DNA from: a virus
Strand: one strand, 5' to 3'
IMG/VR virus record: IMGVR_UViG_3300034105_003474
Coordinates: 1-64,000 of that record
DNA: 64,000 bases
Notes under the pieces: generated by a model
What the model saw: only the letters and a program-made list of their open reading frames with translations
What the model was told of the DNA's origin: nothing
Databases searched by the model: none
Part shown: positions 25,768 to 49,199 of the stretch, piece by piece
How the letters are laid out: each line of letters starts with the position of its first letter
How positions within the stretch are numbered: the first letter of the stretch is position 1
Made by a program: the position numbers and the translations under genes

Positions 25768-25832
25768 CCCTTCTCTGCACCAAAGCCGCACAGTTCAATC
25801 AACGGAATAGCAAGAAAGCCTGAACCCTCTTT

Positions 25833-26456
25833 ATGACAACAATCGTAGGTATCCAAGGAGATGGTTATTGTCTTATAGCGGGGGATACTCGTATTACTTC
25901 TGTGGATAGTAATGGTTCTGCGTATCAGATGAACACGCTCAAGCCTGAGACTTCTAAGATTGCTGTGAACGGAAAGTATCTGATCGGTACAGCAGGAGAT
26001 CTAAGAGCGATCAATCTTCTGACCCATACTCTCACCCCGCCAGTTTGCCCACCTAACCTGAGAGGCAAAAAACTTGATGAGTTTGTCACCAACAAACTGA
26101 TCCCCGCAATCCGACAAATGTTTGAACAAAACGGGTACACCGTAAACGAAGCGAACACAAACAGCAATAAAGCCGAACATGACTCCGAAATGCTCGTAGC
26201 AGTCAACCAAACCATCTATTTGATAGACGGCGACTACTCATGGTTCACAGACACCACAGGAATCTACGCCCTCGGCACAGGATCCGCTTATGCGTTAGGG
26301 GCATTACACAACATGCCACCAGTCAAAAACCCTGCCCAAGCCAAAAAACATGCCATCAAAGCCCTAGCCACAGCCAGCAAATACGACCCCAACACAGGCA
26401 ACCCATACCACACCCACATCCAACAAACACAACAAAAAACGGATAAACCTAAATGA
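25833..26456 (+). CDS. Ntn-hydrolase, HslV/proteasome-beta-like protease
   Basis: N-terminal MTTIVG, AGD, GTAG, ALGTGSAYALGA. Confidence 0.8.
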   Translation: MTTIVGIQGDGYCLIAGDTRITSVDSNGSAYQMNTLKPETSKIAVNGKYLIGTAGDLRAINLLTHTLTPPVCPPNLRGKKLDEFVTNKLIPAIRQMFEQNGYTVNEANTNSNKAEHDSEMLVAVNQTIYLIDGDYSWFTDTTGIYALGTGSAYALGALHNMPPVKNPAQAKKHAIKALATASKYDPNTGNPYHTHIQQTQQKTDKPK

Positions 26457-26767
26457 AACAACAAAACCACAAACCCCAAGACGATACACAAACAAAACGC
26501 TGGCAAAACCACGCAGCCTGCCGAGGAAAAACAAACCTCATGTTCCCCCAACACCACAAAGACATCACCTACATCCTCACCGCAAGAGACATATGCGCAC
26601 ACTGCACAGTACGACCACAATGCCTCAAAGAAGCCTTAGAATATCACCCAATAGACATGCACGGAGTATGGGCAGGCTTAACAAGCAGACAGTTAGCCGC
26701 AGAACAAAAACGCAGAGGCATCAAACCAAAACGCCCATCCATCTCCCAAATGTGGGACCTATCGTAA
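26453..26767 (+). CDS. whiB: WhiB-family transcription factor
   Basis: W...AAC, ICAHCTVRPQC, HGVWAG. Confidence 0.9.
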   Translation: MKQQNHKPQDDTQTKRWQNHAACRGKTNLMFPQHHKDITYILTARDICAHCTVRPQCLKEALEYHPIDMHGVWAGLTSRQLAAEQKRRGIKPKRPSISQMWDLS

Positions 26768-27094
26768 ACAAACCCCACACACATCACAAAAAGTAGACCC
26801 CAAAACCTCCACAGCCTTCTTATCACAAGACGGCAAACCACAAGGCTCCAACCTCCGCTCACCCCGCAAATAAGCCACAACCCCAGACAAAGGCTCAACA
26901 GGATCCGAAACCTCCAACAAAGCCCGACCCTCCGCATCCCGAACACCATTCACAAGCAACAAACCCACCAACTTCTGAAACGACAACTCCCGCAACACAG
27001 CCAAATCCACCAACTGATTCTTCAACCACCCAGGAACAGGAACAGTCACATACACCGAATCCCCATCACGAGCACGCCTAGCCTCAAACCCCAT
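26759..27094 (-). CDS. RHH-like plus C-terminal Zn-ribbon protein
   Basis: Start MGFEARR; VTVPVPGWLK..L; C....C...CDVC. Confidence 0.5.
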   Translation of the reverse strand: MGFEARRARDGDSVYVTVPVPGWLKNQLVDLAVLRELSFQKLVGLLLVNGVRDAEGRALLEVSDPVEPLSGVVAYLRGERRLEPCGLPSCDKKAVEVLGSTFCDVCGVCLR

Positions 27095-27269
27095 CAACAC
27101 CACCCCAATCCCGAACCACCAACATAGACAAATACTCAGACAAAGACAAATCAAAAGCATCCGCCTGATCAACCATCAAATTCTTGATGTCTGCGTCTAT
27201 TTTTATGGTTAGGGTTGTTTTTGTATTTGGTGGTGCTTTGTGTGGTGGTCGTCCGTGTCGTTTTTTCAT
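27084..27269 (-). CDS. Ribbon-helix-helix DNA-binding protein
   Basis: GRPP...TLTIKIDADIK.L...A...LSLSEYL. Confidence 0.65.
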   Translation of the reverse strand: MKKRHGRPPHKAPPNTKTTLTIKIDADIKNLMVDQADAFDLSLSEYLSMLVVRDWGGVDGV

Positions 27270-27815: not shown

Positions 27816-28221
27816 CTAGAAACTCCTGCCGTGCATCACGCTTCTCTGTCCGTTGAATGAAACCCTCAATCTTGTCAGCATCACGAAATATAAGATCTAT
27901 ACCGTTATATTTCTTTTGTTGCGGATTATTGCCCATATGGAACGGGGAAGACGCACAACCATCTATAGCCCTACAGGATGCTTCTATACCGTAGTCATAG
28001 ATTGATGCGGCGATCTTGACTTTGCGGTCGTGATCTAAGACAGCCAACTTGGAAGCGCCCATAGCGTTAACCCAATAGTCCCAAACGATTTTGACTGCTT
28101 CGTCAGATATTCCTTTGGCTTTTTCGGCTCGTTGTTTGGTGGATATACGAGGACGCTTCTGTTTAGGTTTAACAGGATTGCTATATGCGCCACCGTCATC
28201 GTTGGAAAACAGTTCCATCAT
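27805..28221 (-). CDS. Replication initiator C-terminal-like protein
   Basis: VWDYW...R...AIDGC..SPF..G.N...Y..IDLIFR. Confidence 0.5.
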   Translation of the reverse strand: MMELFSNDDGGAYSNPVKPKQKRPRISTKQRAEKAKGISDEAVKIVWDYWVNAMGASKLAVLDHDRKVKIAASIYDYGIEASCRAIDGCASSPFHMGNNPQQKKYNGIDLIFRDADKIEGFIQRTEKRDARQEFLDEQ

Positions 28222-28963
28222 CTTCCGAAGTCTACACCCTTTTAAGTAAAAGTCAAATACTTTTCCGGACCGGTCCGACGTATATGACGTACAGGATTAT
28301 ATCGTTGGTATCAACGAAAAGCAACAGCAACGTAACACCAGCCAAACAAAACTTTGGAGAGTGTGAGAACCTTTACCAAATCAAAAAAGATGCGCGAGCA
28401 GCACAATCAGGATCCGCGATTTTTGTGAAACGCGAAACAAGAATTTGAAATGGAGATGATCATCAAGGTTGTATCCGCCACCGTGCATCTTAGATGCTTA
28501 CCTGCGCTTACTATTTTTTTCGGCGCAGTCCCGTGTGGTAGTGGTACAAGATAGCAGACCAACAGCCCCGCGCAACACACGTTTCAAAAATAAACCTCTA
28601 GTAACGTAATATTGTGTCCGACAGTCCCGTGTACCCGCGGGTAACCACAACATGTTGGGGTCACCTACCGCGGCAGCGGGGCTATCCCGCGTTCTGCACG
28701 ACAGTGCATGCGGGGCTGATAACTGTTGCTAGGCTAAAAGTTATCGGCGGGGCTCTGAAGACCCCCATCTGAAAGGCTCGTCGTAGTAGTAAGCGGGGCT
28801 ATGAACTTTTCGTCGGGAACAGTTGCATAGTCCCCGCTACTACTTTACTAATCGTAGGTCAGGTTTTTTGTAGGTTGGGTGATCACGCATTGAGCGTGTC
28901 AAGTCGTTGTTTCCGCCACCGTACAGTTTGGAAAGCGCGTTCTTCTTTTTTGTCGGTTTCTTC

Positions 28964-29296
28964 TTAGAACTCTCCGTCGTCATCGCTGTCCTCTGCTTCT
29001 CCTTGGTATGCCATCAGGATGTCAAATGCTTCTGATCGTCTGATGATTGCGTTTGCTGTCATGATCGGCCAGTCCGCTACAGGTGTTGCGAAACCTTCAA
29101 AGTGTTCTTGCATTCCTTCTTCGTTACCGCACGCCGAACATACTTCTATTGGTTTGTGTGCGTCTTGTCCGCGGGTGAGTCGGGAGATTGCCCCAATGTA
29201 TTGTCCGTGTTGCGCGTTTGAAGGGATCAGCCCTTCGCATCGGGGGCAGATGCCCATGTCTACTTGTTTGCCGTGGATTTTGTTCCAAGGTTTCAT
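28964..29296 (-). CDS. Hypothetical Zn-finger protein
   Basis: CPRC...AISR...VCSACG..E; AAGGAG RBS. Confidence 0.65.
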   Translation of the reverse strand: MKPWNKIHGKQVDMGICPRCEGLIPSNAQHGQYIGAISRLTRGQDAHKPIEVCSACGNEEGMQEHFEGFATPVADWPIMTANAIIRRSEAFDILMAYQGEAEDSDDDGEF

Positions 29297-29446
29297 TTGC
29301 TACTCCTTGTTTCTTGTTGGTTTAGTTTTATAGGTTCATGTGGGGAGTTGTTGCCATCCCATCCACAAACTTCTCCATCAGACCATTGGTCTACCCATAT
29401 GACCTGCTTGTTATATCTTATCTCAGTTATTGCCCACCCGCAATAT

Positions 29447-29698
29447 TTACAGGTAAACATCTATATCCGCCACCGTTTGGTTTGGAAGAGATGGTTGTTG
29501 TTCGTAAACCATGTATTCCCCGTCGTTGTCTATCGCGATGCCTGTGACCCAACTGTTGCGGTGCTCTGATCCTGTCGCGCTGTATGGGTCGTCGCCTATG
29601 AGGATGCGCGTCTTGAATACCGCACCTGACATCGCCTCGTTCTCGTTGGGTGCTTCTATATCTGTTGTCACCATTGTGGTAACGCGGTACTTTGCCAT
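29447..29698 (-). CDS. Hypothetical protein
   Basis: Coupled ORF; C-terminus overlaps the 24-bp repeat. Confidence 0.55.
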   Translation of the reverse strand: MAKYRVTTMVTTDIEAPNENEAMSGAVFKTRILIGDDPYSATGSEHRNSWVTGIAIDNDGEYMVYEQQPSLPNQTVADIDVYL

Positions 29699-30069
29699 TA
29701 CTTGTCCTTCCGTTTGTTCATGTATTCGTCTACTGCGTGGATGCCTGTGTTGATGATGAGTGATAGTGGGAGGAACGCTGATGCTTTCTTCCCGTAGGTT
29801 TCACTGTTTTTCTCTACGGACTCTTGGATAAGTTTTTCTAATAGTTCTCCGTTGAATGCCACATAGATTTGTTTGGTGTCTAGTTCTGTTATCAACGGTT
29901 CTAATACATCTTGTTCGGTGAACGCTGATGGGTGTGCTGTGAGGAATGTGATGTGTGTTCCGTCCTCGTGTTCCATGCGGAGAAGGATGTCGTTGTCACC
30001 GTCGTTCATATCTTCAAATTCAAAGTCCATATAGTTTATTTTTTTCTTTCTGATGGCTGTATACGCCAC
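29698..30069 (-). CDS. Hypothetical protein (start may be 30030)
   Basis: Acidic ORF coupled to next gene. Confidence 0.5.
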   Translation of the reverse strand: MAYTAIRKKKINYMDFEFEDMNDGDNDILLRMEHEDGTHITFLTAHPSAFTEQDVLEPLITELDTKQIYVAFNGELLEKLIQESVEKNSETYGKKASAFLPLSLIINTGIHAVDEYMNKRKDK

Positions 30070-30094
30070 CGTTTGGTTTGGAAAGCCACTTCGT

Positions 30095-30622
30095 TTAGAA
30101 GTGGTAGTCCACGATCACGATCCACTGTGAGTCAGGGTCTTTTTCTAGTCGCTTCTTCAACCACTCAGGGTTGGGGGTGTATTCAACCGTGTCGTAGAAC
30201 ATGGTGTCTGATGAGTATTCTCTGTTGAGAACCTTGAATGCTCTTGTGACTCTGAAGACCGCGAGACTTTCTTTCATGCGGTTATCTTTTTCTTCGTCTG
30301 TCATTTCTGTATAAGGTTTTTCACCGTAGTACTCAAAATCGTATTTACGGTTGGTGAGAATGTCCTTTAGGGAAATGTCTCCATACTCGCTGACAACTTT
30401 GTCTATGGTTTCTTGTGTCCACTCGCACGCAACTTCTACAAGTTTATTGAAACCTTCGGGATCATCTTTGTAGTTTGTTGCAACTTTCATGTCTGCGACA
30501 CGATCGTCTTCCACGATTGAACACCAATCTGACCACTCCTGCGACTCTGCGAACTGTAGTGCTCTGCCTTTTGCGTCCACTTCGTCAAACGCTTCTACTG
30601 CTAATCGGTGATATGTATGCAT
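30095..30622 (-). CDS. Hypothetical protein (ends VIVDYHF)
   Basis: Start MHTYHR after GAGG; W.DW and VDYH motifs. Confidence 0.65.
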   Translation of the reverse strand: MHTYHRLAVEAFDEVDAKGRALQFAESQEWSDWCSIVEDDRVADMKVATNYKDDPEGFNKLVEVACEWTQETIDKVVSEYGDISLKDILTNRKYDFEYYGEKPYTEMTDEEKDNRMKESLAVFRVTRAFKVLNREYSSDTMFYDTVEYTPNPEWLKKRLEKDPDSQWIVIVDYHF

Positions 30623-31056
30623 TAGATATTCCTCCCCATGATGTCGCTTGCGTAATTCCTGATACCTGATACGAGTTCCTCGCTGTAAACATTCCACAAG
30701 TAATCAGACGAGAGGATGTATTGTCCCAACTCGTTTAGTTGCTCATCTGTGAGTTCTTTTGCGAACTTGTATTCGTCGCTTGCGTAACCGCTGTCAAGAC
30801 GATCGGTGATTTCTTCACGCAACGCTTTCACACTGAATGCGATTGAGTTCGCATAGGTGAGATCGTTGTCGGTGTATCGGTCTAGTGATACCCCGTACTT
30901 TTCGCCAAGTTCACACGCCGTGCTGTCGTTTCCGCCCTCTTGCCATTCGTGCAAGAGTGCGAGACCTGCCTCGTCCAATGTTTCCGTGTTCATGAGTACT
31001 GTGCCTGCGAGATCGCAGACCGTACCGTCCATAGTGTTGATTAGGAACTTGCCCAT
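30622..31056 (-). CDS. Hypothetical protein
   Basis: Start MGKFLI after GGAG. Confidence 0.65.
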   Translation of the reverse strand: MGKFLINTMDGTVCDLAGTVLMNTETLDEAGLALLHEWQEGGNDSTACELGEKYGVSLDRYTDNDLTYANSIAFSVKALREEITDRLDSGYASDEYKFAKELTDEQLNELGQYILSSDYLWNVYSEELVSGIRNYASDIMGRNI

Positions 31057-31134
31057 TTTTATTACTCCATTTCTAGTAGGTGTATTTATTGTAGCGGTTA
31101 CAAAAATGTTTTGCAACCTGAAGCGGTTGGGTTG

Positions 31135-31488
31135 TTACACCCGAACCGCCCTACTAAGGATTTGTGCCTCAATCTCTTTCACAGGACGAGGACTCCAATG
31201 ACAATCACGCTCTACCGCAGGAACACCGCCAAAGACGCTGACTGCTTCTAGTTCGCTGTACGAGAAGTACCCGTACTCCATCTCAAACCCGTCTACGAGA
31301 CCCCAAAAGGTGTCTACGCCGTCAAACTCAATCGCATACCAAGTCCATTGGGAATACGGTGAGAAGAACTTGACCATTGCGATCGCTTCTTTTTCAGGGT
31401 GCTTCTCGCTGTTGTAGAGAGGGGGGAGAGTGTCCCTGATCTCTTGGGTTACAAGTAGGTGCTTTCGTTTCGCTTTTTGGGTTTCCAT
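31135..31488 (-). CDS. DUF2958 family protein
   Basis: VKFFSP...WTWY..E.DG..F.GLV.G.E.E.GYFS..EL...VERD. Confidence 0.8.
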   Translation of the reverse strand: METQKAKRKHLLVTQEIRDTLPPLYNSEKHPEKEAIAMVKFFSPYSQWTWYAIEFDGVDTFWGLVDGFEMEYGYFSYSELEAVSVFGGVPAVERDCHWSPRPVKEIEAQILSRAVRV

Positions 31489-31743
31489 TACTTGATCTCC
31501 TTGTAGTTTCCGTTTTTGGTTTCTTTTAGGTTTGTATAAATGATTACTTGTCCCTCGTTGTCTACATCCATGTCGCAACTTGGGATAAGTTTTTCTAACT
31601 TTTTACGCAACTTGTCACCGTCAATGTTTTTCATTGCTTCTCCTCGCAATCGTGTCCGTACCAATAATCATTTGCCTGATCTTCGTCACGCATATCAAAC
31701 ACGCGATCGCACTCTGCACATTTCGCTTTCATGATTTCGCTCC

Positions 31744-32079
31744 TTAGTTTTCTAGTGTGACTGTTGTGTCTTTTACGAATGTTGCCCACGCTGAAGTGAA
31801 CTCGTCGCCGTGTTTCGCAAACCCTACGATCTCGCCTTGCGGTTCACGCTCAACAATATGGATGAGTTGCGCCATGCGTGCTGTTGCTTCGGAAAGAACT
31901 TCGTATTCTTCTTCCCAAACATTTGCCACATAGTCGCCCCAAATCAAAACGAACTTGTTGAACATTTCGCTTTCAGGTTCTGTTTCAATGATGAACATTT
32001 CCGAGATGTCTGTACGCAACTCAAATATCACATTTGAGTTTTTGTAATCTTCTATGATCCCTTGTTTTAGTAATGACAT
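31744..32079 (-). CDS. Hypothetical protein
   Basis: AAGGAG RBS and own promoter. Confidence 0.6.
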   Translation of the reverse strand: MSLLKQGIIEDYKNSNVIFELRTDISEMFIIETEPESEMFNKFVLIWGDYVANVWEEEYEVLSEATARMAQLIHIVEREPQGEIVGFAKHGDEFTSAWATFVKDTTVTLEN

Positions 32080-32156
32080 TTCTTGCTCCTTGTTTAGTAG
32101 GTTTAGTTTCGGGTTTCCCCTTCCCCAAATAGTAGGGGAAGGGTGTAACACGGTTA

Positions 32157-32753
32157 TTAGAACGCCTGTACCAAAACTTTGGTAATTTCGTCTAGTTCGC
32201 CAACGACCTTCTCATACTGTGCGTCATAGTCGTCGTCGTCGCCACTCATGCTTGGGTACTCGCACTCAATGTTATTGAGAAGTACGCCTGCCTTGATCGC
32301 TGATCCACCCATGAAACCCATCCCACCTTCTTCGTAGGTGAGAATGAAGTTCAATGTTGGGAACTCCCTAGACACATTGACTATGCCCTGAATGATCGGA
32401 GACCACGCAGACATGAACACAACATCTAATAGACCTGCCTCGTAGGTGTTGATTACGCCTTCGTAGTCAGACCACTTAGAACCGTAGTTCGCACAATTCC
32501 AATCGTACCAATCCTTATATCCGAACTTTGCGATATTCGCTTCGTTCTGTTGTTCCATTGTCTTTTGCTTGTCGCTTTCACCGAAAGAACCTTTAGGTGT
32601 GTTCTGTAGTTCTTCGGGTGTTGGGAGAAGATTGTCAAGAATACGAAACTGTTCGTAATCTTTCATCTCACCTTTTGTGATTGCGTCATGAAAACGCATC
32701 ACTTCTTTGTCGTCTCCTGTTACTTGGAGATAGTTGCTACATAGGTTTGGCAT
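32157..32753 (-). CDS. DUF1281/YubB ferredoxin-like fold protein
   Basis: MPN.C.N, DWYDW...NYGSKW, F.SAWSP, Y.E.G..F.G. Confidence 0.75.
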   Translation of the reverse strand: MPNLCSNYLQVTGDDKEVMRFHDAITKGEMKDYEQFRILDNLLPTPEELQNTPKGSFGESDKQKTMEQQNEANIAKFGYKDWYDWNCANYGSKWSDYEGVINTYEAGLLDVVFMSAWSPIIQGIVNVSREFPTLNFILTYEEGGMGFMGGSAIKAGVLLNNIECEYPSMSGDDDDYDAQYEKVVGELDEITKVLVQAF

Positions 32754-33117
32754 TTCTTTGCTCCTTGATTTAGTAGGTTTAGTTGCTTGCCCAATCAGTA
32801 TGCCTCATGGGTGTAACACGGTTATTTTTTAGTAGGTGTATTTGTTTTGTTATTCATAAATATATCGGATCAGAAACCATTTGTCAAGTCTTTCGTAAAA
32901 CTTATCCGTATAAATCTAAACGATCTTGCTTTGAGGTTGGGTGAGCATCTGTATCCGCCACCGTTCAGGTTGGTAACAAACAAATGATGCTAAATAACAA
33001 CCGTTGCAAACTAGACAGCCCCGCATCTAACCCTGCACCCGCAACAGTCCCGCGATACACGCGAGAGCGCGGGACTACTGTCTGCGAACACCCGTTTGGT
33101 CTACTAATGTCGGGACT

Positions 33118-33504
33118 ATGAGAACTTCACGAACAGACAGATGGCAATACCGTTTCAATGCGCTTCAGCAATACACGAACAGGGCAGGTAGTTCACTTGT
33201 TCCTGCGACCCACATTGAAGTTTATGAGGGGAAGAATGTTGCTGTTGGTGCTTGGGTTGCGTACAACCGTCAGCAGTACAGAATGGGTACATTGCCTGAC
33301 GCACGCAAGCAAGCGTTAGAGACTCTCGCAGGTTGGCATTGGGAGAAACAGAAACCTGGCAGACGCTATGACATTCGCCGTGACGCAGACATTCTTTCAC
33401 GCCACGCAGGTGGAGAGCGAGTAGGTTTGCTCGCAGAACAATTCAATCTCTCTCGTCAACGAGTTCATCAGATCATCAAGAAGAAGTCAATCCCAAATGT
33501 CTAA
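33118..33504 (+). CDS. Helicase-associated (HA) domain plus C-terminal HTH protein
   Basis: W...F..L..Y...G...VP....G.WV...R..Y..G.L...R...LE...W.W; LAEQFNLSRQRVHQI. Confidence 0.75.
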   Translation: MRTSRTDRWQYRFNALQQYTNRAGSSLVPATHIEVYEGKNVAVGAWVAYNRQQYRMGTLPDARKQALETLAGWHWEKQKPGRRYDIRRDADILSRHAGGERVGLLAEQFNLSRQRVHQIIKKKSIPNV

Positions 33505-33853
33505 CTTTCGTAGCGGAGATAACAACGGTAGAGACGCTTGGAAGAAGATGAGCGAGTGGTCTCACAGTGTCCCTGACGACGAACTCAACGAACTATTCAT
33601 AGACCAAGATGAATGGGACGAGTGGGGAGACGCTGATCTATTGCCACCACTAACACGAGGAAAAAAGATGCAAAAGTTTATTGCAGGTTTATTCGGTCTC
33701 GCAATGATCGGAACAATTTTTTCTGTATCCACATACCAACTTGCAAAAGTGTTTGGTGTAGATAACTTCACTTTCCGAGACGCTGTTGTTGTGACTGTGT
33801 GCTTATCTTTGATTCGTTACACGGACGCAGGAGTGATGAAACAGATCCGATAA
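33497..33853 (+). CDS. Membrane protein
   Basis: Acidic N-terminus, two hydrophobic segments. Confidence 0.55.
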   Translation: MSNFRSGDNNGRDAWKKMSEWSHSVPDDELNELFIDQDEWDEWGDADLLPPLTRGKKMQKFIAGLFGLAMIGTIFSVSTYQLAKVFGVDNFTFRDAVVVTVCLSLIRYTDAGVMKQIR

Positions 33854-33985
33854 ACACAACAGGACGCACCCTTGCGAGTGCGCCCTGAGCGGAGAAACAG
33901 AAAGGTGAAAGGAGAAGTCCTTTCTATCTCTCTAGCGAACAGAATAACATATGAGTTATATGTCAATTCTGAAGCGGGTTGGGAG

Positions 33986-35482
33986 TTACCCCAACCGCTT
34001 TCCGTTTAGTTGTTGATAGGTCTGTTGCCACATTCTTGGATACCAACGCTGTGGTTTTTTACCAACCGATAGTTGCTTCAAGAGTGCAAGTCCGTCTTTC
34101 ACATTGTGTGCCATAAACACTTTGTGCTTCAAGACTTCTTTTATGCAGTCCATTGCAAGAATGTCGTGGTATCCACCGTACGCACCTGCTGTTCCAAGTC
34201 CGTGAACCTGACCGTCAGTAATCCACACGATCGGAGTTGACGAACGCTTACGCTGTTTGATTGCCCAACGAATTGCTTCGCCGTCAACACCGTTCCCACC
34301 ATTTCGTTCAGGAAGTTTGTCAACCATTTTTCCGTCTTTCGCAAGAACGAGAAGGTTTGGTTTGACATTGCTTCGGTCTGCCGAATACACCGCAACCGTG
34401 CAACCAGGACTTGCAACAGTGAGATCAAGAATGTCTTTATTGTTTAGAGACATTGAACCCGAACCGTCAATCAAGACGATACCGCCGTTGCCTTTCTTGT
34501 ATCGGTCAAACACTCGCTTCTCGGGGTCAACTAATGCGTTGCCGATTCTGCGTGGGTTACGACCAATGTTGCTTGCTGTGCGCTTGCGACCGAGACCGCC
34601 GTGTGCTTTGCGTGTAAGTGGAAGAGTACCAACAATAAGTTTTCCCCAAGTCGGTACTGCACCACTGCTTCTGCGTGAAGGTTCAGTCGGTTTTACTTTC
34701 TTTGGGTCTGCTTTCGGTTGCTGTGGTTTATCCGTTGCACCGTTGCCATTCTTGGTATCTTTCTTTGCGTTGCCTTCTTGCTTCGCTTCGTTCTCTTGCT
34801 TCGCTTCGCTTTCACCGTCTTCGTTTTCGTTTTCGTCAACAGGTGGATTTGCCAAACGGTCAATCCATTCTGCGATTCGCTCTGTGTGTGCGAACCCCAT
34901 TGGTGCGAGACCTGTGCGCTCATCTACTTCGGTTGAACCGAGAGTGCCTGTCTTGTGTGCCTTGACAAACTCCTTCTCCACTGCTTTCACAATGTCTCGG
35001 AGTGTTGTTCCCCATGCACGATTTACTCTGCGTACACCTGTGAGGAAGTCTTTGCCACCACCGCAAACCGAATAACCGACTGCTGTGTAAACCGCACTCG
35101 TCCAATCGCCTTGCTCTGCGACACGCATACCTGTAGTGAGTTCGCTTCCGTCTGCCAACAGATCAACATCAAATCCTGCTTTCTTGATAAGAAAGTTCAC
35201 ACGAACTTCCTCAACAACGATCAGTGCGTTCTCTGTTGCGATCTTGCGTTCAATCCACTTCGGGAAGTCGTCTGCGGGTGAGAACCGTGCGTGTGCCATT
35301 TCATGCGCACGAATTACACGATCAACTTGTTCGTCACCAACAGGAACAACCATGTGTTTTGTAACAACATTGGTCATTGGTTTGCCACGAACAGGTGCGC
35401 AAGTATCTACTTGCCATGCGCCCGAGTCTTTATCTTTGCGCCCCAACATTTCGGGGAGTGGTCTAATTTCTGTCTTTTGCAT
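33986..35482 (-). CDS. HEXXH metallopeptidase-like plus VWA-domain protein (MoxR partner)
   Basis: HEMAH...EE.RVN; MIDAS IDGSGSM; ITDG. Confidence 0.75.
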   Translation of the reverse strand: MQKTEIRPLPEMLGRKDKDSGAWQVDTCAPVRGKPMTNVVTKHMVVPVGDEQVDRVIRAHEMAHARFSPADDFPKWIERKIATENALIVVEEVRVNFLIKKAGFDVDLLADGSELTTGMRVAEQGDWTSAVYTAVGYSVCGGGKDFLTGVRRVNRAWGTTLRDIVKAVEKEFVKAHKTGTLGSTEVDERTGLAPMGFAHTERIAEWIDRLANPPVDENENEDGESEAKQENEAKQEGNAKKDTKNGNGATDKPQQPKADPKKVKPTEPSRRSSGAVPTWGKLIVGTLPLTRKAHGGLGRKRTASNIGRNPRRIGNALVDPEKRVFDRYKKGNGGIVLIDGSGSMSLNNKDILDLTVASPGCTVAVYSADRSNVKPNLLVLAKDGKMVDKLPERNGGNGVDGEAIRWAIKQRKRSSTPIVWITDGQVHGLGTAGAYGGYHDILAMDCIKEVLKHKVFMAHNVKDGLALLKQLSVGKKPQRWYPRMWQQTYQQLNGKRLG

Positions 35483-35571
35483 ATTTCCAACTTTCGTTTC
35501 TAGGTTTATGTCTCTTGCTTAGGGAGACTTGCTTACACCCCCACCTTACGGCAGGGGTGTCGCAGGGTTAT

Positions 35572-36315
35572 TTAGACCGCAACCTTGTTGATTGCGATTG
35601 CGTCTAGGACGCTTTCCGCTTGCTTTCCGAACACCATTCGTGCCGAGTCTGCGTCACCAAGTGTCTTGCGTAGGTGGTCAAACGCATAGAAGGTGCGGAG
35701 TGAGATTCTGCGCTCACCTGCGTCTGCCATGCGAACCGCATACTCACGCAAGTCTGCGGACAATGCCAACAGTGCGTCAGGATGTGGTTGGTTGATACGG
35801 ATTGCTACAGGGAAACGATCTTTCAACGCTTCAGGTAGTTCTTCCATTGTCTCAATGTTGGTGGTCATAACAACACTGAACCCGTCTTTTGGTGTGATCG
35901 TCCGACCGTTGTCAGGTGATTCCCACTTTGCTGATTCAGGTGAGTCAGTGAATGCGAGGAGTGTTGCGAACACATCTGCGCCTGCTTTGTCAATCTCGTC
36001 AATTACGAGACGACCGCCACGCAAACCGTCACCCTTCCACGCTGATACTGCTTTGCCGTCTGTCCAAGACCAACCGCCTTCGCCGTTCATCTTGTAGTGA
36101 CCTTCTACTTGCGCATTGGACATGTCCTCTGTGCAGATCAAACGCCACGCACCTGCGGTAATGTCACCGTAGTTGAGACCTGCGAAAGTCTTACCTGTTC
36201 CTGGGGGACCGAATAAGATCAAACGGTCAATGCCTGCGTTGAGTGCGTTCTCAACATCTTTCCAACACTGTGGAAGATCGTTGCGCACCTTTCCTTCTAG
36301 AACTTGCTGTGTCAT
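35572..36315 (-). CDS. MoxR/AAA_5-type AAA+ ATPase
   Basis: GPPGTGKT, VIDEIDKA, TTN, LPEALKDRF. Confidence 0.9.
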   Translation of the reverse strand: MTQQVLEGKVRNDLPQCWKDVENALNAGIDRLILFGPPGTGKTFAGLNYGDITAGAWRLICTEDMSNAQVEGHYKMNGEGGWSWTDGKAVSAWKGDGLRGGRLVIDEIDKAGADVFATLLAFTDSPESAKWESPDNGRTITPKDGFSVVMTTNIETMEELPEALKDRFPVAIRINQPHPDALLALSADLREYAVRMADAGERRISLRTFYAFDHLRKTLGDADSARMVFGKQAESVLDAIAINKVAV

Positions 36316-36444
36316 TTTTCTTTCCTTCTCCGAACTCTGTTCGGTCTAATTGTTTATGTCTATTTGTATTACGCACACACTCGCTGAATGTGTGACTTCC
36401 TTGTACACCCACCACATTACATGGTGGGTGTAACACGGTTTGAG

Positions 36445-36852
36445 TTACGCCACCTGCGCTTCTGCGTTGGTGTTGCTCTCGGTCTTTGCGCCTTTGAGTT
36501 CCGTTACACGGATTTGCTCGTATGCGGTGATCGTGGTTACTGCTTGTGCGACATCTGCCTTGATTACACCAACTTCTACTGCGGACTTGAACTTCTTTCC
36601 GTCCACTGCTGATTTGGTGACAGTCTTGAACACCTTGTCGGAAACAAGATCTTTCAACATTTCAACGCTGTAGGAAGGACGCTCGCCCTTGACTACTGCC
36701 ACTTTGATTCCGTCAACCACTGCGTAGTCAACGCCTTCTTTTGCGAGTTCCAACTTGAAACTTGCTTCTGCCTGTGCGAGTTCTTGCTGTGCGATCTCTA
36801 GTGCTTCACGCTTCGCAAGTACTGCTTTTGCTGTTGAGGTTGTTAGTGCCAT
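36445..36852 (-). CDS. Hypothetical protein
   Basis: Own promoter and RBS. Confidence 0.65.
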   Translation of the reverse strand: MALTTSTAKAVLAKREALEIAQQELAQAEASFKLELAKEGVDYAVVDGIKVAVVKGERPSYSVEMLKDLVSDKVFKTVTKSAVDGKKFKSAVEVGVIKADVAQAVTTITAYEQIRVTELKGAKTESNTNAEAQVA

Positions 36853-36993
36853 TTCTATTTCCTTCTTTCGTTTAGTTGTTTAGGTTTATTTGCTTCTTGC
36901 CACCACTGTATATCAGGGGTGTAACACGGTTATTCGTACTGACTTTCTATCTATGATAGATAGTCTAGTACCTGTTTTTGGACTTGTCAAGTC

Positions 36994-37245
36994 TTATGCG
37001 AGAAACCTCGCAATCCCTGCGTCCGTAAGGTCGTCCCCGATCTGACGCTTTGCGTCTAGGTCGTTCAGGTACTCGCTGACGATCTCGCAGATGTCGTCAC
37101 ATTGGTTCTGAATCGCTTCGTGACGCTCACGCTCGTCTGCGTCCTCTAAAGGGTTCATCACGACCGCATACGACCTGAACGCCTGTGCGAACAACGCTTG
37201 CTCAATGCGTTCTAGTTGTGCTTCTGTGAATGTTGTGATCTTCAT
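36994..37245 (-). CDS. Hypothetical protein
   Basis: Start MKITTF after AAGGAG. Confidence 0.6.
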   Translation of the reverse strand: MKITTFTEAQLERIEQALFAQAFRSYAVVMNPLEDADERERHEAIQNQCDDICEIVSEYLNDLDAKRQIGDDLTDAGIARFLA

Positions 37246-37533
37246 TGCTTGCTCCTTGTTTGTTGGTGTACCTGTAATACGCACAGTGACACGGAATGTG
37301 TGACAATCTTTTTTGGACAGAGTCCAAAATAGGTTGTGGATAATTCGTTGAGGTTTATATACGCCACCGTTCAAGTTGGTAGATGGTTGAAGGATCGCCG
37401 ATCCCCGTGCGCCTGCGCCCGAGAGCCCCGCGCTACAAGCATCTTCTCGGACAGCCCCGCGCCACATCTTTGGTGGCGGGACTACGACGAACTTTTCATC
37501 AAACTTTATACACGCTTGCGCTTTGGTGAGGAG

Positions 37534-37908
37534 ATGCACACTCAGTTTATTCGCTTAGGTTTATACGAGTACTTTGTAACACCCATTTATTATTCTGTAT
37601 TTATGACTTACATATTTGAGGAGTGTGAGGCGCAAGTGCGACTTCACCATAACGGCGAGTGGGTGGGATATGTCTCATATGACATTGACCTCATGGAAAC
37701 CGATTACATCACTATTGGTTGGGTCAAATCATTCATTGAAGGCAAGGGATATGCACGGATACTTATGGAGTGGTTGTACAACCGATACCCCGAACACACG
37801 ATTGATTGGGGAGAATGTTTGCACCCTGCGTCATTGGCGTTAGCAGAGGACTTCTACTCTCGGTACTACGACCGTACGGCATATTTAGAACCTATGGAAA
37901 TATCTTAG
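37534..37908 (+). CDS. GNAT-like acetyltransferase (start may be 37603)
   Basis: VGYVSY...I.WV....EGKGYARILM resembles GNAT motif A. Confidence 0.45.
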   Translation: MHTQFIRLGLYEYFVTPIYYSVFMTYIFEECEAQVRLHHNGEWVGYVSYDIDLMETDYITIGWVKSFIEGKGYARILMEWLYNRYPEHTIDWGECLHPASLALAEDFYSRYYDRTAYLEPMEIS

Positions 37909-37988
37909 AAACATCATCACACTTTATATGACTGTGTGCGTTATATGTGTGTAGGCAACAACGCCTACCAAACAGTTAGGAGACGCAG

Positions 37989-38132
37989 TTGGAAATCAAC
38001 TACGGAGCAATAAAAGAAATGACCCGTGCGTTGAAGCAAGAAATTGCACAAAATGGGATAAACGAAAACAATGCACAATGGGTTCACGAACTCAGAGTTG
38101 CGATTGAACTTCGTGAAAGCGGTGTCTACTAA
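37989..38132 (+). CDS. Small hypothetical protein (47 aa)
   Basis: TTG start after AGGAG; followed by terminator. Confidence 0.5.
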   Translation: MEINYGAIKEMTRALKQEIAQNGINENNAQWVHELRVAIELRESGVY

Positions 38133-38142
38133 CACCGCCAAC

Positions 38143-38179
38143 AAGACCCCAACTCGGAAACGGGTTGGGGTTCTTTTTT
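38143..38179 (+). terminator. Intrinsic terminator
   Basis: accccaactc-ggaaac-gggttggggt stem plus T-run. Confidence 0.7.
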
Positions 38180-38276
38180 GCCATAGCCCCGCGATCTGAT
38201 ACGCGACGCGGGACTGAAGCAAAAGAAAACCCGCAGAAGATGGTTGGTCTCCTGCGGGTTCTTGAAGTTTTGATTT

Positions 38277-38516
38277 TTAGTAGACCCCGAACGATATTCC
38301 GTCTGATGTCATTCCGAACAATGCGCCTGCGTCATTGCCCTCTGTGTCCTGCGAAGGGTAGAGGATTGTTCCGCTAGAGAGGACGAGAACCATAGGGATT
38401 TCCCGTTTCCGCCAACCTTCTTTGTTCATTTCTGCTTTTGTCATTGGACGGATGTCAATGATTGTTGATCCGATCATTGAGTCGTCTACGGTTTCTGCTT
38501 CGTATGTTTTACTCAT
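38277..38516 (-). CDS. Hypothetical protein (IRPMT..E...EGW...S.D.EGN..G family)
   Basis: Start MSKTYE; recurrent phage motif. Confidence 0.65.
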   Translation of the reverse strand: MSKTYEAETVDDSMIGSTIIDIRPMTKAEMNKEGWRKREIPMVLVLSSGTILYPSQDTEGNDAGALFGMTSDGISFGVY

Positions 38517-38718
38517 TGTGTGTCCTTTTTCTTTCGTTGTAGTGATGTAGTGGAGACATACCACGCTCCTCCACCACCGAGTATGTATATGTATGCCGAA
38601 CTAGAGTCTTCTTCTGCGTATCCCCAAAACTCGCAATCACTTTCATTGCGGTATTTGACGATTTCGCCGATCTGATATTGCTTCATCTATGTCCTTTCTG
38701 TGGTGAAGCGTCTCGCTG

Positions 38719-38970
38719 TTATGCGGACGCTATTACGGGTGATACGAGGTTTGCTAGTTCACGCTCTAACTCTGCACCTTCGCAGTTGTTCATGAGGTCA
38801 ATCAAATTATCTAACCATGTCGCAACTTTTGCAGGGAGTGGTGTTGTGTTGAGATAGTTGGTGTACTTGTTGAGTACGACATCTATTTCGTTTGCTAGTC
38901 CTGCTCCTTCAACATTGTTTGTGATGTCAAGGATTTCTATGACTAGGTTTAGGTAACTTTGCTTTGCCAT
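38719..38970 (-). CDS. Hypothetical protein with internal repeat (NNVEGAGL / NNCEGAEL)
   Basis: Own promoter. Confidence 0.6.
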   Translation of the reverse strand: MAKQSYLNLVIEILDITNNVEGAGLANEIDVVLNKYTNYLNTTPLPAKVATWLDNLIDLMNNCEGAELERELANLVSPVIASA

Positions 38971-39164
38971 TTCTAGTGCCTTTCGTTTAGGTTTATACAA
39001 CTACTTTACTGAAGCGGTGTAGCAGGGTTATCCCTGCCACCTAAAGTTGCGACACGCCTTCTTGTCGTTCTTTTTCCGCTTGTCCGCTATGCGCTGTGCC
39101 TTCAGGATGTTCCTATCTGCGAACGCCTGACGCTCCTCGGGTGTCCATGATGTATCTATTTTCA

Positions 39165-39647
39165 TTATGCTCGTCTCCTGTTCTTTGTCCACTCGTGACA
39201 ACTATGTTTTGCTTGCTCATCTACTTGCTCTTGTGACATTCCTGCTGTAATCAACGGACGGTATCCGCATGAGTTACACGCAACGCCGAGGTACTCGGTG
39301 ACACCTTGTGCTATCTGATATGCGTGAACTGTTGTGTTGCCGTGCGTGCGCTCATTTAGATAAACCGTGATGAATACTTCGCAGTTTGCGCAACCGATGA
39401 TTTTGACATCTTTGCCGTCTGTCGGTGCTTGCTTTGTAAAGAAGTCAAACTTGAAGTGTTTGCAGGTTTCGCACTTGTCGTCAAGTTTGCGAACCTTTGC
39501 TACTTCTACTGCACCTTCGGTAACGACCTTCCAATGTGTTGGGAGGATGCCTTTCTTTTGTGCTTGCTCAATGAGGTGGTTGCGAACCGCCCATTGTGCA
39601 TAGGGCTTGGCGACTTTTGTTGCCTTTGCCTTTTTGACCTTTGCCAT
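39165..39647 (-). CDS. Cys-rich Zn-binding hypothetical protein
   Basis: Three CxxC pairs; AAGGAG RBS. Confidence 0.65.
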   Translation of the reverse strand: MAKVKKAKATKVAKPYAQWAVRNHLIEQAQKKGILPTHWKVVTEGAVEVAKVRKLDDKCETCKHFKFDFFTKQAPTDGKDVKIIGCANCEVFITVYLNERTHGNTTVHAYQIAQGVTEYLGVACNSCGYRPLITAGMSQEQVDEQAKHSCHEWTKNRRRA

Positions 39648-39783
39648 TTCTAGTATCTCCTTGTTTAGGTTTATCTAACTCGCTACTTACACTATATACG
39701 CACGGTGTCATATAGTTGTGACATTTATAGACGCTAATAATAAATATACTTCTAATATATCAGGGGGCATAATATCCCCACCT

Positions 39784-39804
39784 TTATCCACAGCCTGTGG
39801 ATAA
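39784..39804. promoter_or_regulatory. Inverted pair of perfect DnaA boxes
   Basis: TTATCCACA-gcc-TGTGGATAA; a third perfect box at 37335..37343. Confidence 0.65.
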
Positions 39805-40266
39805 CTAGATCGGGCAACACCATTTAGCACTAAGTCAAACAATCAGCAGGCTATATACGCCACCGTTCAAGTTGGGTGATGTCTTGATGTCTTGATTGCG
39901 GGGATCGCCAAACCCCACAGCCCCGCGCCCGCGCATCGCGTCGCGGGACTCACAAGTCTCAGATTGTTCGTCGGGACTGTCGCCGTCGCATCCGCCGTTT
40001 GTTGGGATAGTGTTGGGATATGGCTCATCCCTTCAGTCGCAAACACTCCACTAACTTGCAGATCAGCAATGTCATTGACGCACTCGCGCAAACTGAGCCC
40101 GAACTATTTGGCGAGGGCAACGCCGTGCTAATGCCCGTCACACACTCCACAAGGCTCACGCTTGCAGACGATCTGCGTTCACACTATGAGCCACTCACCT
40201 ACCCTCATACGCACAAATAGCCCGCCTACCGAACGGCAGACGGGCTACTGAACGCCTAAGAGTGAT

Positions 40267-40515
40267 CTAGGACTGCACCCAACCCCTTGGGGTATTCATC
40301 GCGTAAAGGTGCGGTATGACGCTCACGATGAGATCAGTGAACGCTTGCGCCACCTCATCGCGCGAGGACGATATACCTTGAATGAAGTCATCGTCAATAC
40401 GCCCATGAATGAGATCATCCACGATCGCACCGATAACACCGATACCTATTGCACCTATGCCGAGATAATTCTCCGCAAGTAATTCACGCACTGATAATTC
40501 CATAATTTTCTCCAT
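40267..40515 (-). CDS. Hypothetical protein
   Basis: ORF followed by hairpin at about 40219-40247. Confidence 0.5.
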   Translation of the reverse strand: MEKIMELSVRELLAENYLGIGAIGIGVIGAIVDDLIHGRIDDDFIQGISSSRDEVAQAFTDLIVSVIPHLYAMNTPRGWVQS

Positions 40516-40605
40516 TGTCTAGTTGCTTGGTAATCGGCTTGCGCCTTGTGCCTAGTTGGAATTGAATCCCACGCCGAACGCGCTAGGCGACTCACCTAGT
40601 GAGTG

Positions 40606-41046
40606 TTATGCACCGTGTGTGCCGTCACCGCCCATCGCGATAAGTGTTGCACGATTCCACGCCTCACGCACCGCATCGTTCGCAATGAGTGCCGTGTTGG
40701 TGGTGAGTAGTTCAATGACTTGCGCCTCAAACTGATCTAACGCCTTCGCGCTGTATCGTGCGATCGGTTGCGATGCAACCATGCCGTGTGGGTAGTTCAC
40801 CGTGTCAAAGATCGTGAACTGCACCGACTCATAACCACGCGAACGATCGTAATGCGCGAACTGAATGAACGCTGTGAATCGCTTGCGATCTGCATCGTGC
40901 GAGATACCGAGTGACACCATCCCACCGACTAGTTCGCCTTCAAACTGAATTGACTGCGAAGGACTGTACCAACGGTAAGAGATCTCGCGATCCTTCACCT
41001 TGCGTATTGCTTGTGCGAAGTTCGCACCTTGAGTCATAACTGACAT
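40606..41046 (-). CDS. Hypothetical protein
   Basis: Start MSVMTQ after GGAG; own promoter. Confidence 0.6.
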   Translation of the reverse strand: MSVMTQGANFAQAIRKVKDREISYRWYSPSQSIQFEGELVGGMVSLGISHDADRKRFTAFIQFAHYDRSRGYESVQFTIFDTVNYPHGMVASQPIARYSAKALDQFEAQVIELLTTNTALIANDAVREAWNRATLIAMGGDGTHGA

Positions 41047-41391
41047 ATCTAACTCCATTCCTAGTAGATAAGCGATATTGCTTATACACACACAATACGC
41101 AAGGGGTGTTGCATAGTGTGACATCGCCCGATCAGGCAGATCAGCCACACCGAGATCAGGATTCACGATCTGCGATCCGACTCACGATCTATATCCGCTA
41201 CCGTTCAAGTTGGGGACTCAGATCCGCGATCCGCCCGTGCGACGCGCCCGCCCGCGCACGGCGACGGAGCCCCGCAAGTATTTGTTTACCCGCATCAGTC
41301 CCGCGTGCATCGTCGCACGGCGGGACTCGCAAGTCGTTGGCGACAAACAGTTGCGTTTGAAACGGTTGCGACACTCGGACTTAGAAACAGC

Positions 41392-41721
41392 AAAAGCCCC
41401 CACCCGACAGAAAGGTGAGGGCTCGTGCCGAACCGAAGTTTACTTACTTGCCTCCAAGAGTGCTTGGAAGTTTGCGAACTCCTGCTCGCATGACAAACAA
41501 TGCCACACGGTGGTTGGGTTGGAGTCCGATGCAACTGCGCTATCTGTGTGCTTGTGTCCTTCAATGCACGGATCGTACATATGCCTAGCCTTTCGTTTAG
41601 AGGGGCTGTATCGCCCCTGTGTACTCATTACGCACGCACCATCGCTGATTGTGCCTGAGACGCACCACAAGCCCCCCTAGGAACGCAAAAAGCCCCCACC
41701 CGAAGGGTGAGGGCTCGTGCC
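41392..41721 (-). terminator. Two near-identical terminator hairpins (41392..41429 and 41687..41721)
   Basis: aaagcccccacccga...ggtgagggctcgtgcc duplicated, each downstream of a minus-strand stop. Confidence 0.7.
41440..41580 (-). CDS. Small Zn-ribbon peptide
   Basis: MYDPC..H.H...WHCLSC; between the duplicated terminators. Confidence 0.45.
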   Translation of the reverse strand: MYDPCIEGHKHTDSAVASDSNPTTVWHCLSCEQEFANFQALLEASK

Positions 41722-41731
41722 TGTGAAGGAA

Positions 41732-42154
41732 CTATGCGGAGAGTGCTGACACCTTCGCGCGAACATTCGCAATGTTCGTGAAGTGCTTCACGCCTTCCGC
41801 GGTGGTGAAACCAACCTTGACCACGCCGTAACCGTCCTCCTCGGGTGCGACCCAAAAGACCACGCCGACCGTGCCTTTAGGAACTTTGCGTCCCTTGAAC
41901 ACCTCAACGGTTTGACCCTTGACGACTTCGCCGTCCGCGACCAACTGTGCGAGACGCTCCGCATTGCGACGGACGATCTCCGCCCACCTTGCGACTGCCT
42001 CCTCCGTGTGACGGTGGGGTTGCTTCCAACGACCAACGCCACCCTCGTACTCGCGACCTGCACGCTCCGCGAGATAACGCACACCATTGCGGTTTACATC
42101 AAAGAAAACCTCTTCTCCGCACCCGCCACACCCGAACCTTTTACCGTTTTCCAT
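41732..42154 (-). CDS. Hypothetical protein (SH3/KOW-like GRKVPKGTVG.VFW C-terminus)
   Basis: AGGAGG RBS; own promoter. Confidence 0.65.
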   Translation of the reverse strand: MENGKRFGCGGCGEEVFFDVNRNGVRYLAERAGREYEGGVGRWKQPHRHTEEAVARWAEIVRRNAERLAQLVADGEVVKGQTVEVFKGRKVPKGTVGVVFWVAPEEDGYGVVKVGFTTAEGVKHFTNIANVRAKVSALSA

Positions 42155-42688
42155 AACTCCTCCTTCAGAGGTCTAGTAGTTGTAATCAGAATACGCACAG
42201 GGTGTGACAGAGTGTGACTTGGATAAACCTAAACGAAGGGACGGCGAAGCCGCTTTCTGACAGCGAAGCAGCGTTGCGGGCGAAGCCGCTCGGCATCGCT
42301 GGCTTTCCTGCTCCGCAGCGATGCATCTCATACACAGCCCCGCAAACCGCGTGGCTACGCGGGACTATGGGCGCATCAGAAGAAGAAAGAAGACAAACCC
42401 GGTTGGGAACGTTGGGACAGGACCCGACGCACATTTTTGTAAAAAAGACAACTTTTTACGCGTTTTAGAAAACACCAATTTTTCACTAATTTTATGGTTT
42501 TTGAAAGCCTTATTCCATAAGGGTTTTACGGAACAGGTTTTCAGGAAACTTCTGAGCCAACACAAAAAACATCAAAAAGAACAACTTTTGAAAGATCCGG
42601 CTGCCAGGTCCCACAATTCCGGGCAGGTCCTGCTTCAGGCTTCTCGGAAGCCCCGCTTAGTTACTTGTGCTGAAGCACAGCGCGGGAC

Positions 42689-42889
42689 TCAGAAGAGGGT
42701 TGGCGCATCATCAAATTGGTTGCGTACCTCAGTACAGATTTTGTGGGCATACCCGAGTGGGGCGGAAGGTTTTTTTGGTGTCCCCAAGTATTTTCCATCT
42801 CGGTATTCAACCCATGAAACGATCTTCACACAGTAGGCGTGGTTCGTTGTGTCTATTTCTTGTTCACAGATGGAGCAGTTGACTTTCAT
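42689..42889 (-). CDS. Small Zn-binding protein
   Basis: CSIC...AH..C. Confidence 0.55.
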   Translation of the reverse strand: MKVNCSICEQEIDTTNHAYCVKIVSWVEYRDGKYLGTPKKPSAPLGYAHKICTEVRNQFDDAPTLF

Positions 42890-43114
42890 TTATGCGGTTG
42901 CTTCTGCCTTTAGTGGTGCAACGATCACGGAGAGTAGATCTTCTACAGGGAACTGTAGATCACTATGCGACCTGATGTCAAGGAGTAGATCAACCATTTC
43001 TGATGATGACACGAGTTCGCGACCCGAGATATGTTTGATCGCATTGTCTATGAGGTCGGTGATAGTGCTAATTTGTTGTGCTGTTTCCAAGAGACTTCTT
43101 CTTTCTAGGTGCAA
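42890..43114 (-). CDS. Hypothetical protein (ISGRELVSSSEMVDLLLD motif)
   Basis: Coupled ORF; start uncertain. Confidence 0.5.
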   Translation of the reverse strand: MHLERRSLLETAQQISTITDLIDNAIKHISGRELVSSSEMVDLLLDIRSHSDLQFPVEDLLSVIVAPLKAEATA

Positions 43115-43268
43115 TAGTTGGTAGATAGTTTATCGCATAATCGTAGGTATGACGCAGACAAACGATGTGGTCGTTGTACACCGAGAGTGCTGTAGAGCAC
43201 CCTTCTAGTGCACAACGACGAACGCCGTTGCCATCTGTTTTGGGTTTGAGGACGGTGTTACTCTCCAA
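43068..43268 (-). CDS. Small Cys/His protein (C...GC.T.LS.YN....C..H)
   Basis: Motif and operon position. Confidence 0.55.
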   Translation of the reverse strand: MESNTVLKPKTDGNGVRRCALEGCSTALSVYNDHIVCLRHTYDYAINYLPTIAPRKKKSLGNSTTN

Positions 43269-43707: not shown

Positions 43708-43762
43708 TACTTCTCCTTGTTTCTAGTAGTTGTACCAAGAGTAATACGAGGGTGTTGTGCGG

Positions 43763-44564: not shown

Positions 44565-44608
44565 AGTGTCTACTATACGCAACGGGTGTGACAAAGTGTG
44601 TGACCCCA

Positions 44609-45754: not shown

Positions 45755-45779
45755 CATTGCTATATATATTGGATACACT
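45751..45779 (+). promoter_or_regulatory. Sigma70/SigA-type promoter
   Basis: TTGACA-17 nt-TACACT. Confidence 0.7.
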
Positions 45780-49171: not shown

Positions 49172-49199
49172 CTTAAGGAGTTAACTCAATGTTTGCAGT

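Follow-up and report, generated by a model that had tools for sequence, protein, structure and literature searches.

What kind of selection can clear a long run of phage genes of short DNA words that the rest of the same genome retains? The question is raised by IMG/VR record IMGVR_UViG_3300034105_003474, a 144,873-bp virus record from an uncultured freshwater phage, whose first 64 kb (64,000 nucleotides) form the window analysed here. A first-pass annotation had read positions 30090-39600 as purged of the RGCY tetramers AGCT, GGCC, GGCT and AGCC, the last of these surviving only inside the motif AGCCCCGC, and had proposed that the segment meets a host RGCY-specific nuclease or methylase before phage protection acts. 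Machine counts over 30090-39600 confirm the observation itself (AGCT 0, GGCC 0, GGCT 0, AGCC 4), and each of the four remaining AGCC, at 33017, 37424, 37453 and 38185, lies within AGCCCCGC. This motif is strongly over-represented, with 36 copies of AGYCCCGC versus 1.8 expected, and since it also holds every surviving AGCC, the suggestion that it is itself under strong selection is upheld. For AGCC/GGCT the depletion is real and regional, in genes on both strands: 4 copies are observed where 64.1 would be expected from the density elsewhere in the genome (Poisson P = 1e-22). A control region at 62-82 kb is normal (114 vs 112 AGCC/GGCT), and the depletion is thus uneven along the genome rather than uniform. 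Two further intervals thought to look similar, 40.6-41.1 and 42.9-44.9 kb, do so, AGCC/GGCT being absent from 40536-41143, which is too short for significance by itself, and from 42649-44888.

Codon usage alone does not account for this gap. Counts were compared with two codon nulls, both of which preserve every protein sequence, using crude gene calls (191 genes). The 4 observed AGCC/GGCT stand against 19.5±3.4 in a within-gene synonymous-codon shuffle (minimum 11 in 300 shuffles) and against 36±5 when codons are redrawn from the usage of genes outside the block, so both nulls stay well above the observed value. A shift in codon usage makes up about half of the AGCC/GGCT loss and codon context the rest. 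Among the alanine codons of the block, GCC and GCT account for 2% and 3% (together 5%), compared with 16% and 32% (together 48%) outside, their place being taken by GCA and GCG over 28840-47202. As GCC and GCT are nearly abolished, the codon usage of the block follows from the purge and offers no alternative explanation for it. The codon-preserving shuffle furthermore exposes a deficit of other words in 30090-39600, with 0 TTAA versus 21.0±3.3, 3 CCAG/CTGG versus 28.2±3.7, 0 CCGG versus 5.2 and 0 ACGT versus 26.2.

The purge is thus wider than RGCY in its words, and it is also wider than the roughly 9.5 kb first estimated, covering 28.8-47.2 kb. In a longest-gap scan of all 3- to 6-mers, TTAA (n=374) ranks first with a gap at 28242-49173 (20.9 kb; log10 P about -21) that runs from a non-coding hub to the stop codon of a SNF2 helicase gene; a single TTAA is observed in the block, versus 45 or 74 expected under the codon nulls. 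The next longest gaps belong to the CCAG/CTGG and AGCC/GGCT words, and all top gaps lie within 25-58 kb. CCGG is missing from 28270-42399, ACGT from 28604-42409 and GCNGC from 28673-42249, and CCAG/CTGG is about six-fold depleted in the block. We mapped TTAA, CCGG, ACGT, GCNGC, CCAG/CTGG and AGCC/GGCT gene by gene and found that each called gene at 28840-47202 retains at most 0.33 of its expected sites, the majority having zero. The unbroken purged run comprises 33 to about 37 called genes, depending on the choice of boundaries, and outside 28.8-59 kb there are 0 genes (with at least 4 expected sites) whose observed/expected ratio is 0.15 or lower. At 50-58 kb a second, patchy zone follows, in which fully purged minus-strand operons alternate with plus-strand genes (DUF932, SSB and others) that have lost part of their sites, the minus-strand genes at 52434-54209, 55731-56306 and 57006-57203 being without sites. 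DUF932, SSB, a small N6/N4 DNA methyltransferase and a ParB-like protein are grouped in this partly purged zone (50024-52361, 58668-60989).

Other words are lost over the whole genome. AGCT (0), TCGA (0) and GGCC (10) are missing throughout the 144,873 bp, so that the regional character claimed for RGCY holds for AGCC/GGCT and fails for AGCT and GGCC; CCWGG (24) and ACGT (106) are strongly reduced genome-wide as well. The avoided words are mostly short palindromes; CCAG/CTGG and AGCC/GGCT are exceptions, yet their loss affects both orientations. Sense-strand counts in the block are 3 for AGCC, 7 for GGCT, 3 for CCAG and 4 for CTGG, versus 17-29 expected for each, and the loss of both orientations of asymmetric words on the sense strand indicates recognition of double-stranded DNA, not RNA. 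The last three CCAG/CTGG in 29069-42299 (33355, 34404, 36200) all lie within CCWGG, a context that holds about 3% (24/794) of CCAG/CTGG genome-wide; either CCWGG is protected (e.g. by Dcm-type methylation from a previous host) or the avoided word is CCAG without a following G. CYRG and CCWG were considered as wider forms of the CCAG purge and rejected, because CTAG and CCTG/CAGG are undepleted.

Relatives of the phage show that the set of avoided words differs by lineage, with different purged sets in eight lineages. We recovered 18 IMG/VR loci carrying a 498-aa protein of the block and took two near-complete genomes (G001, G002) whole; the comparison was made on a homologous 12-kb core, where G000 denotes the record under study, L010 the locus from the G001 record and L012 that from G002. 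In G000, L010 and L009 the core is purged of ACGT, CCGG, TTAA and CCAG; AGCT, GGCC and TCGA are also absent, but the flank past the boundary lacks them too, which marks their loss as genome-wide. L001 has additionally purged GATC (3 vs 31) and CGCG (9 vs 61) and retains TCGA, L015 has purged GTAC (0 vs 30) and retains TTAA, and L011 has purged AATT (0 vs 35), CGCG (1 vs 59) and GATC and retains TCGA and CCAG. L004 has lost only AGCT, GGCC, GTAC and most ACGT, keeping TTAA, CCAG and CCGG, and L012 is purged of AATT, ATAT, TATA, TTAA, GATC, ACGT, CCGG and CCAG. Two relatives at 34% identity also part ways: L017 shows no purge and its sister L018 avoids ACGT, CGCG and GCGC. Past the left boundary the lineage-specific words return at expected density, and a homologous 24-mer hub (window 28.2-30.1 kb) is where the gaps stop in eight lineages, whichever words are involved. 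One fixed boundary combined with differing words per lineage argues for position-specific selection and not for the single import of a pre-purged block.

The same comparison bears on a mosaic history, in which the block would have been imported from a lineage whose hosts carried more restriction systems, its purge being inherited rather than maintained by position. Such a history would agree with the slightly higher GC content of the block (47.7% vs 45.5%) and with signs of exchange within it: 40138-42333, part of a sub-block (39.6-42.25 kb) that carries AGCC/GGCT but lacks the other words, cannot be aligned between G000 and the close relative G001 and thus represents a swapped cassette, 37484-38968 is likewise swapped, and some cassettes differ in purge state. 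However, at least five lineages with different purged words share the same homologous block and boundary, and nucleotide identity between G000 and G001 in the block (82-88%) is equal to or above that in the rest of the genome. AGCT and TCGA are moreover missing from block and rest alike, indicating that both met the same hosts. We therefore regard inheritance of an imported purge as improbable.

The relatives also take the RGCY words apart. A single host RGCY-specific, CviJI-like nuclease or methylase acting on an unprotected segment would explain why all four words are gone from 30090-39600, save AGCC within AGCCCCGC, and why GCC and GCT alanine codons have collapsed in the block. Yet AGCT and GGCC, whose loss is genome-wide and not regional, are avoided by every relative at 69% identity or above, whereas AGCC/GGCT is unpurged in L004 and weakly purged in L012, and five other words (TTAA, CCGG, ACGT, GCNGC, CCAG/CTGG) are purged from the same block. 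RGCY thus does not behave as a unit, and we assign a low probability to one such enzyme as the cause. The avoidance of AGCT and GGCC looks like a response to common AluI- and HaeIII-type specificities, and the AGCC/GGCT purge is possibly due to an RGCY enzyme in some hosts.

In G002 (69-74% identity; the record that also holds L019-L025) the zone is longer, at about 27-66 kb in reverse-complement coordinates, and includes 39 kb without TTAA. Over 35 kb of it (31-66 kb) there are 0 TTAA, 2 ATAT, 2 TATA and 13 AATT, and TGCA (29) is strongly reduced. Palindromes make up six of the seven most depleted 4-mers of this block, and non-palindromic AT-only words stand at or above local Markov expectation. 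No Type II enzyme directed at ATAT or TATA is known to us. In the same 31-66 kb of G002 the words CGCG and GCGC are enriched by three- to five-fold, and GATC is missing from its entire genome; no C5 or Dam-class methyltransferase that would explain why GATC is kept here and absent in G002 was found in the phage genomes.

These patterns speak to causes unrelated to defence, namely codon or amino-acid usage, avoidance of AT-rich DNA (e.g. evasion of an Lsr2-like silencer) and mRNA-cleaving toxins. In their favour, the block is somewhat richer in GC and A-tracts are reduced, most in G002. The codon-preserving shuffles, however, exclude codon or amino-acid usage, only the palindromic words are lost among the AT words, the asymmetric words are lost in both orientations, and the GC-rich CCGG and GCNGC are purged too. 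AT-avoidance as the source of the TTAA, AATT, ATAT and TATA loss was rejected because non-palindromic AT words are retained, and any non-defence cause appears extremely improbable.

The genes of the block are nearly all small orphans without a family match, many of them encoding acidic proteins. Searches of about 30 block genes against PHROGs and Pfam returned matches only to AAA_5, DUF1281_C, an HA domain, SNF2 and a few families of unknown function. Cassettes are short, and the block is punctuated by polar 24-mers, promoter-like repeats and AGYCCCGC dyads; elements with the core ACGGTGGCG mark cassette boundaries within it. Good sigma-70-like leftward promoters at 32887 and 44942 lie just downstream of ACGGTGGCG copies at 32950 and 44977, sigma-70-like promoters are not enriched overall, and transcription diverges from about 45.0 kb. 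Orphan small acidic proteins, short cassettes and leftward promoters together suggest the make-up of an early, host-takeover region. Several ACGGTGGCG copies sit in coding sequence in differing reading frames, and their positions are kept in all relatives, e.g. at locus coordinates of about 8.1 and 12.5 kb. Such polarity would be compatible with a promoter, or with a Chi-like or translocation signal.

We consider it rather probable that restriction-site avoidance at many different sites is concentrated here on an early, host-takeover region. On this explanation, about 18-20 kb of small genes of the early, host-takeover type (28.8-47.2 kb) would have been stripped by selection of the words that several host restriction-type nucleases target, with the effect weakening in a tail that reaches about 58 kb. 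Targets lost genome-wide would be AGCT, TCGA, GGCC and largely ACGT and CCWGG, and those lost from the block alone would be TTAA, CCGG, GCNGC, the remaining ACGT, CCAG/CTGG and AGCC/GGCT. Block DNA would be in the cell, and would have to be expressed, before phage counter-measures act, and a site there would be lethal, whereas DNA entering or becoming important later would by then have its sites shielded. The logic would be the one that applies to the first-step-transfer DNA of T5 and to the leading region of T7-like phages. If all sites were exposed together, dropping about 60 of the 374 TTAA would barely cut the risk, so we infer that the others are unexposed at the critical time. The idea of an unprotected segment survives in this form, since an early-type gene block fits host restriction acting on early-exposed DNA; the RGCY specificity attached to it does not.

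Exceptions inside the block complicate this picture. The non-coding island at 42.25-42.65 kb contains CCGG x3, ACGT x1, GCNGC x5, about ten AGCC/GGCT and 0 TTAA, with AGCCCCGC...GCGGGACT dyads at its 5' end and just past its 3' edge. Nothing was found when 27-52 kb and the window were scanned with Rfam and for tRNAs, so the island is not a known RNA. The SNF2 helicase gene is also unpurged, except that TTAA is absent. A segment that enters first and in which any cut is lethal would need an extra explanation for the island and for SNF2 (they might be protected, recently acquired or at a segment boundary), and their poor fit to a simple entering-segment model counts to some degree in favour of a variant in which expression class decides. 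Here the whole genome would enter at once, and only those units that fire before anti-restriction functions accumulate would be purged. Indeed, the purge forms a patchwork by gene or operon, with SNF2 and its neighbour unpurged in mid-zone, with purged minus-strand operons alternating with partly purged plus-strand ones at 50-58 kb, and with the remaining sites in non-coding islands between cassettes. The TTAA argument nevertheless tells against it, as with all sites exposed so small a reduction in number should lower the risk of cutting only slightly and should not produce a complete local purge. We judge purging by expression class without ordered entry to be unlikely.

Several further points weigh against avoidance focused on an early region that enters first. 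No anti-restriction family is recognisable among the about 30 block genes searched against PHROGs and Pfam, and, RGCY aside, we know of no restriction enzyme for the asymmetric 4-mers CCAG or AGCC. The record ends look like an assembly break, and the block can therefore not be placed at a terminus. Most block genes are transcribed leftward, toward the sharp boundary; this direction sits better with a genome whose leading end is to the right (about 42-47 kb) and whose early region stops at the hub, in the manner of T7, whereas under a T5-like model the terminus would be at the hub itself. It is a tentative possibility, which we put below even chances, that these freshwater phages of about 145 kb form a new group that delivers or exposes a fixed leading segment of 19-39 kb first, by a T5-like two-step or a T7-like transcription-coupled route. 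A search for a T7-type RNA polymerase gave no match, but control genomes gave none either, so the result carries no weight. Seven contigs of relatives (L002, L003, L006, L007, L008, L013, L015), from four lineages, end at the equivalent of 25300-26700, an interval of 1.4 kb lying 1.5-3 kb left of the purge boundary; the clustering hints that assembly is fragile here or that a physical end is near. At 26760-27170, in the interval from the replication-type genes to the hub, the plus strand is strongly C/A-skewed (ccaaaacctccac...) and holds doubtful open reading frames only.

Table 1. Features of the window and of the remainder of the record, in record coordinates.
Feature	Position	Strand	Remarks
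Tail-fibre and structural genes	103-145 kb, running on into 1-20 kb		
Exonuclease and replication-initiator-like gene	24-28 kb		
Polar 24- to 30-nt element, core ACGGTGGCG	28182-45006	minus	ten copies, strictly polar
Non-coding hub, left boundary of purge	28222-28840		several polar 24-mers and AGCCCCGC copies; purged words present
Small orphan gene block	28.8-47.2 kb		
498-aa partner of AAA_5 ATPase	33986-35482		
AAA_5 ATPase	35572-36315		family match
Sub-block with AGCC/GGCT, without TTAA, CCGG, ACGT, GCNGC, CCAG/CTGG	39604-42248	minus	
Non-coding island	42249-42650		site-rich, about 400 bp; conserved in relatives
SNF2 helicase, DUF932, SSB, phosphoesterase, N6/N4 methyltransferase, ParB-like gene	47-61 kb		
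SNF2-family helicase gene and next gene	47228-49850	plus	unpurged, ratio about 0.8
Second, patchy zone	50024-58125	both	from per-gene map
Primase, second methyltransferase, ribonucleotide reductase	62-72 kb		
Head operon	74-99 kb		
Large terminase subunit	99.4 kb		

The gene order of the record is summarised in Table 1. CheckV rates the record 100% complete, and IMG/VR lists it as linear and without end repeats. Over 521 nt its two ends (1-521 vs 144353-144873) share only 88% identity, and both fall within a group of several tail-fibre paralogues; they give no usable signal of a terminus, and the contig probably broke where a circular assembly path passes through a tail-fibre region that is variable and repeated. 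A near-identity DNA search with the purged block gave no match among deposited phage genomes. With tblastn, a 1351-aa protein found a single, marginal match, in an Actinomycetia phage, and the nearest terminase relatives are those of psiM2, Gordonia and FelixO1-like phages, which do not point to one packaging mode. An actinobacterial host is probable, judging from the weak match to the Actinomycetia phage and from terminase kin among Gordonia and Arthrobacter phages. All three full genomes encode the same two N6/N4 methyltransferases, and GANTC is undepleted in all three (381, 366 and 552 copies); one of these enzymes may be a CcrM-like GANTC methylase protecting the phage's own DNA.

What we describe here is an almost complete signal that extends to many sites and, with its one boundary fixed, differs between close relatives. 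Sequence alone may therefore suffice to find the early or leading regions of uncultured phages, genome-wide avoidance statistics can overlook the strongest selection, and restriction specificities can be predicted, in testable form, for uncultured freshwater hosts. If a leading segment is indeed exposed first, the purge sets of the lineages would give a read-out, from sequence alone, of the restriction repertoire of uncultured hosts, including specificities without a known enzyme, both asymmetric (CCAG, AGCC) and palindromic (ATAT, TATA).

How does the block compare with known systems? The specificity of CviJI, from chlorella virus IL-3A, corresponds exactly to the words first noted, RGCY being AGCT, GGCC, AGCC and GGCT, but neither between lineages nor along the genome do the four words vary together, and words outside RGCY are purged too. 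To our knowledge, no CviJI-like enzyme is known for the presumed actinobacterial hosts. The combination of SSB, DUF932, N6/N4 methyltransferase and ParB-like genes encoded in the zone recalls the leading regions of conjugative plasmids. In these the first-entering DNA is GC-richer and carries anti-defence genes (PMC13478746), and the zone described here shares the higher GC content as well as this gene set. In plasmid leading regions, nevertheless, targets are not systematically depleted and 4-bp palindromes do not differ (Shaw et al., Nucleic Acids Research (NAR) 2026; PMC13478746), in contrast to the near-total depletion in the phage block.

Avoidance of restriction sites (palindromes) in phages has been scored over whole genomes (Rusinov et al. 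2018; PMC6286503), and a text search of that work turned up no mention of early genes, injection or genome regions. Our case is alike in that Type II-like palindromes are under-represented, the genome-wide loss of AGCT, TCGA and GGCC being a textbook example. It differs in having a second layer of avoidance, confined to one block.

In T5 the segment transferred first makes up 8% of the genome and lies in a known terminal repeat, and two-step transfer has been shown experimentally. Its first-step-transfer DNA is free of EcoRI sites (as summarised in PMC12455610). Both phages have a sub-genomic segment of small genes, pre-early or of host-takeover type, without sites found elsewhere in the genome, and sites elsewhere are tolerated, presumably through protection by early products (PMC12455610). 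Here, however, the block covers 13-20% of the genome, at least six words are purged at once, most of them of 4 bp, the block has been recognised from its sequence only, and no T5 pre-early homologues were identified. In Murciavirus (Autographiviridae), only motifs in the first-injected region confer Type I sensitivity, and restriction has accordingly been argued to select on a sub-genomic scale (Martinez-Cazorla et al., NAR 2025; PMC12455610). The likeness lies in restriction selection focused on the DNA injected first and in isolates that differ in which leading-region motifs they lack (PMC12455610). The Murciavirus work is experimental and deals with a T7-like podovirus of about 40 kb and a single bipartite Type I motif (PMC12455610), whereas ours is computational and concerns many short, mostly palindromic (Type II-like) words and a 20-kb word-free stretch in a 145-kb phage. 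The principle is thus known, from single sites in T5 and from one Type I motif in Murciavirus; what is new is its extreme multi-site form, which is near-total and varies from lineage to lineage.

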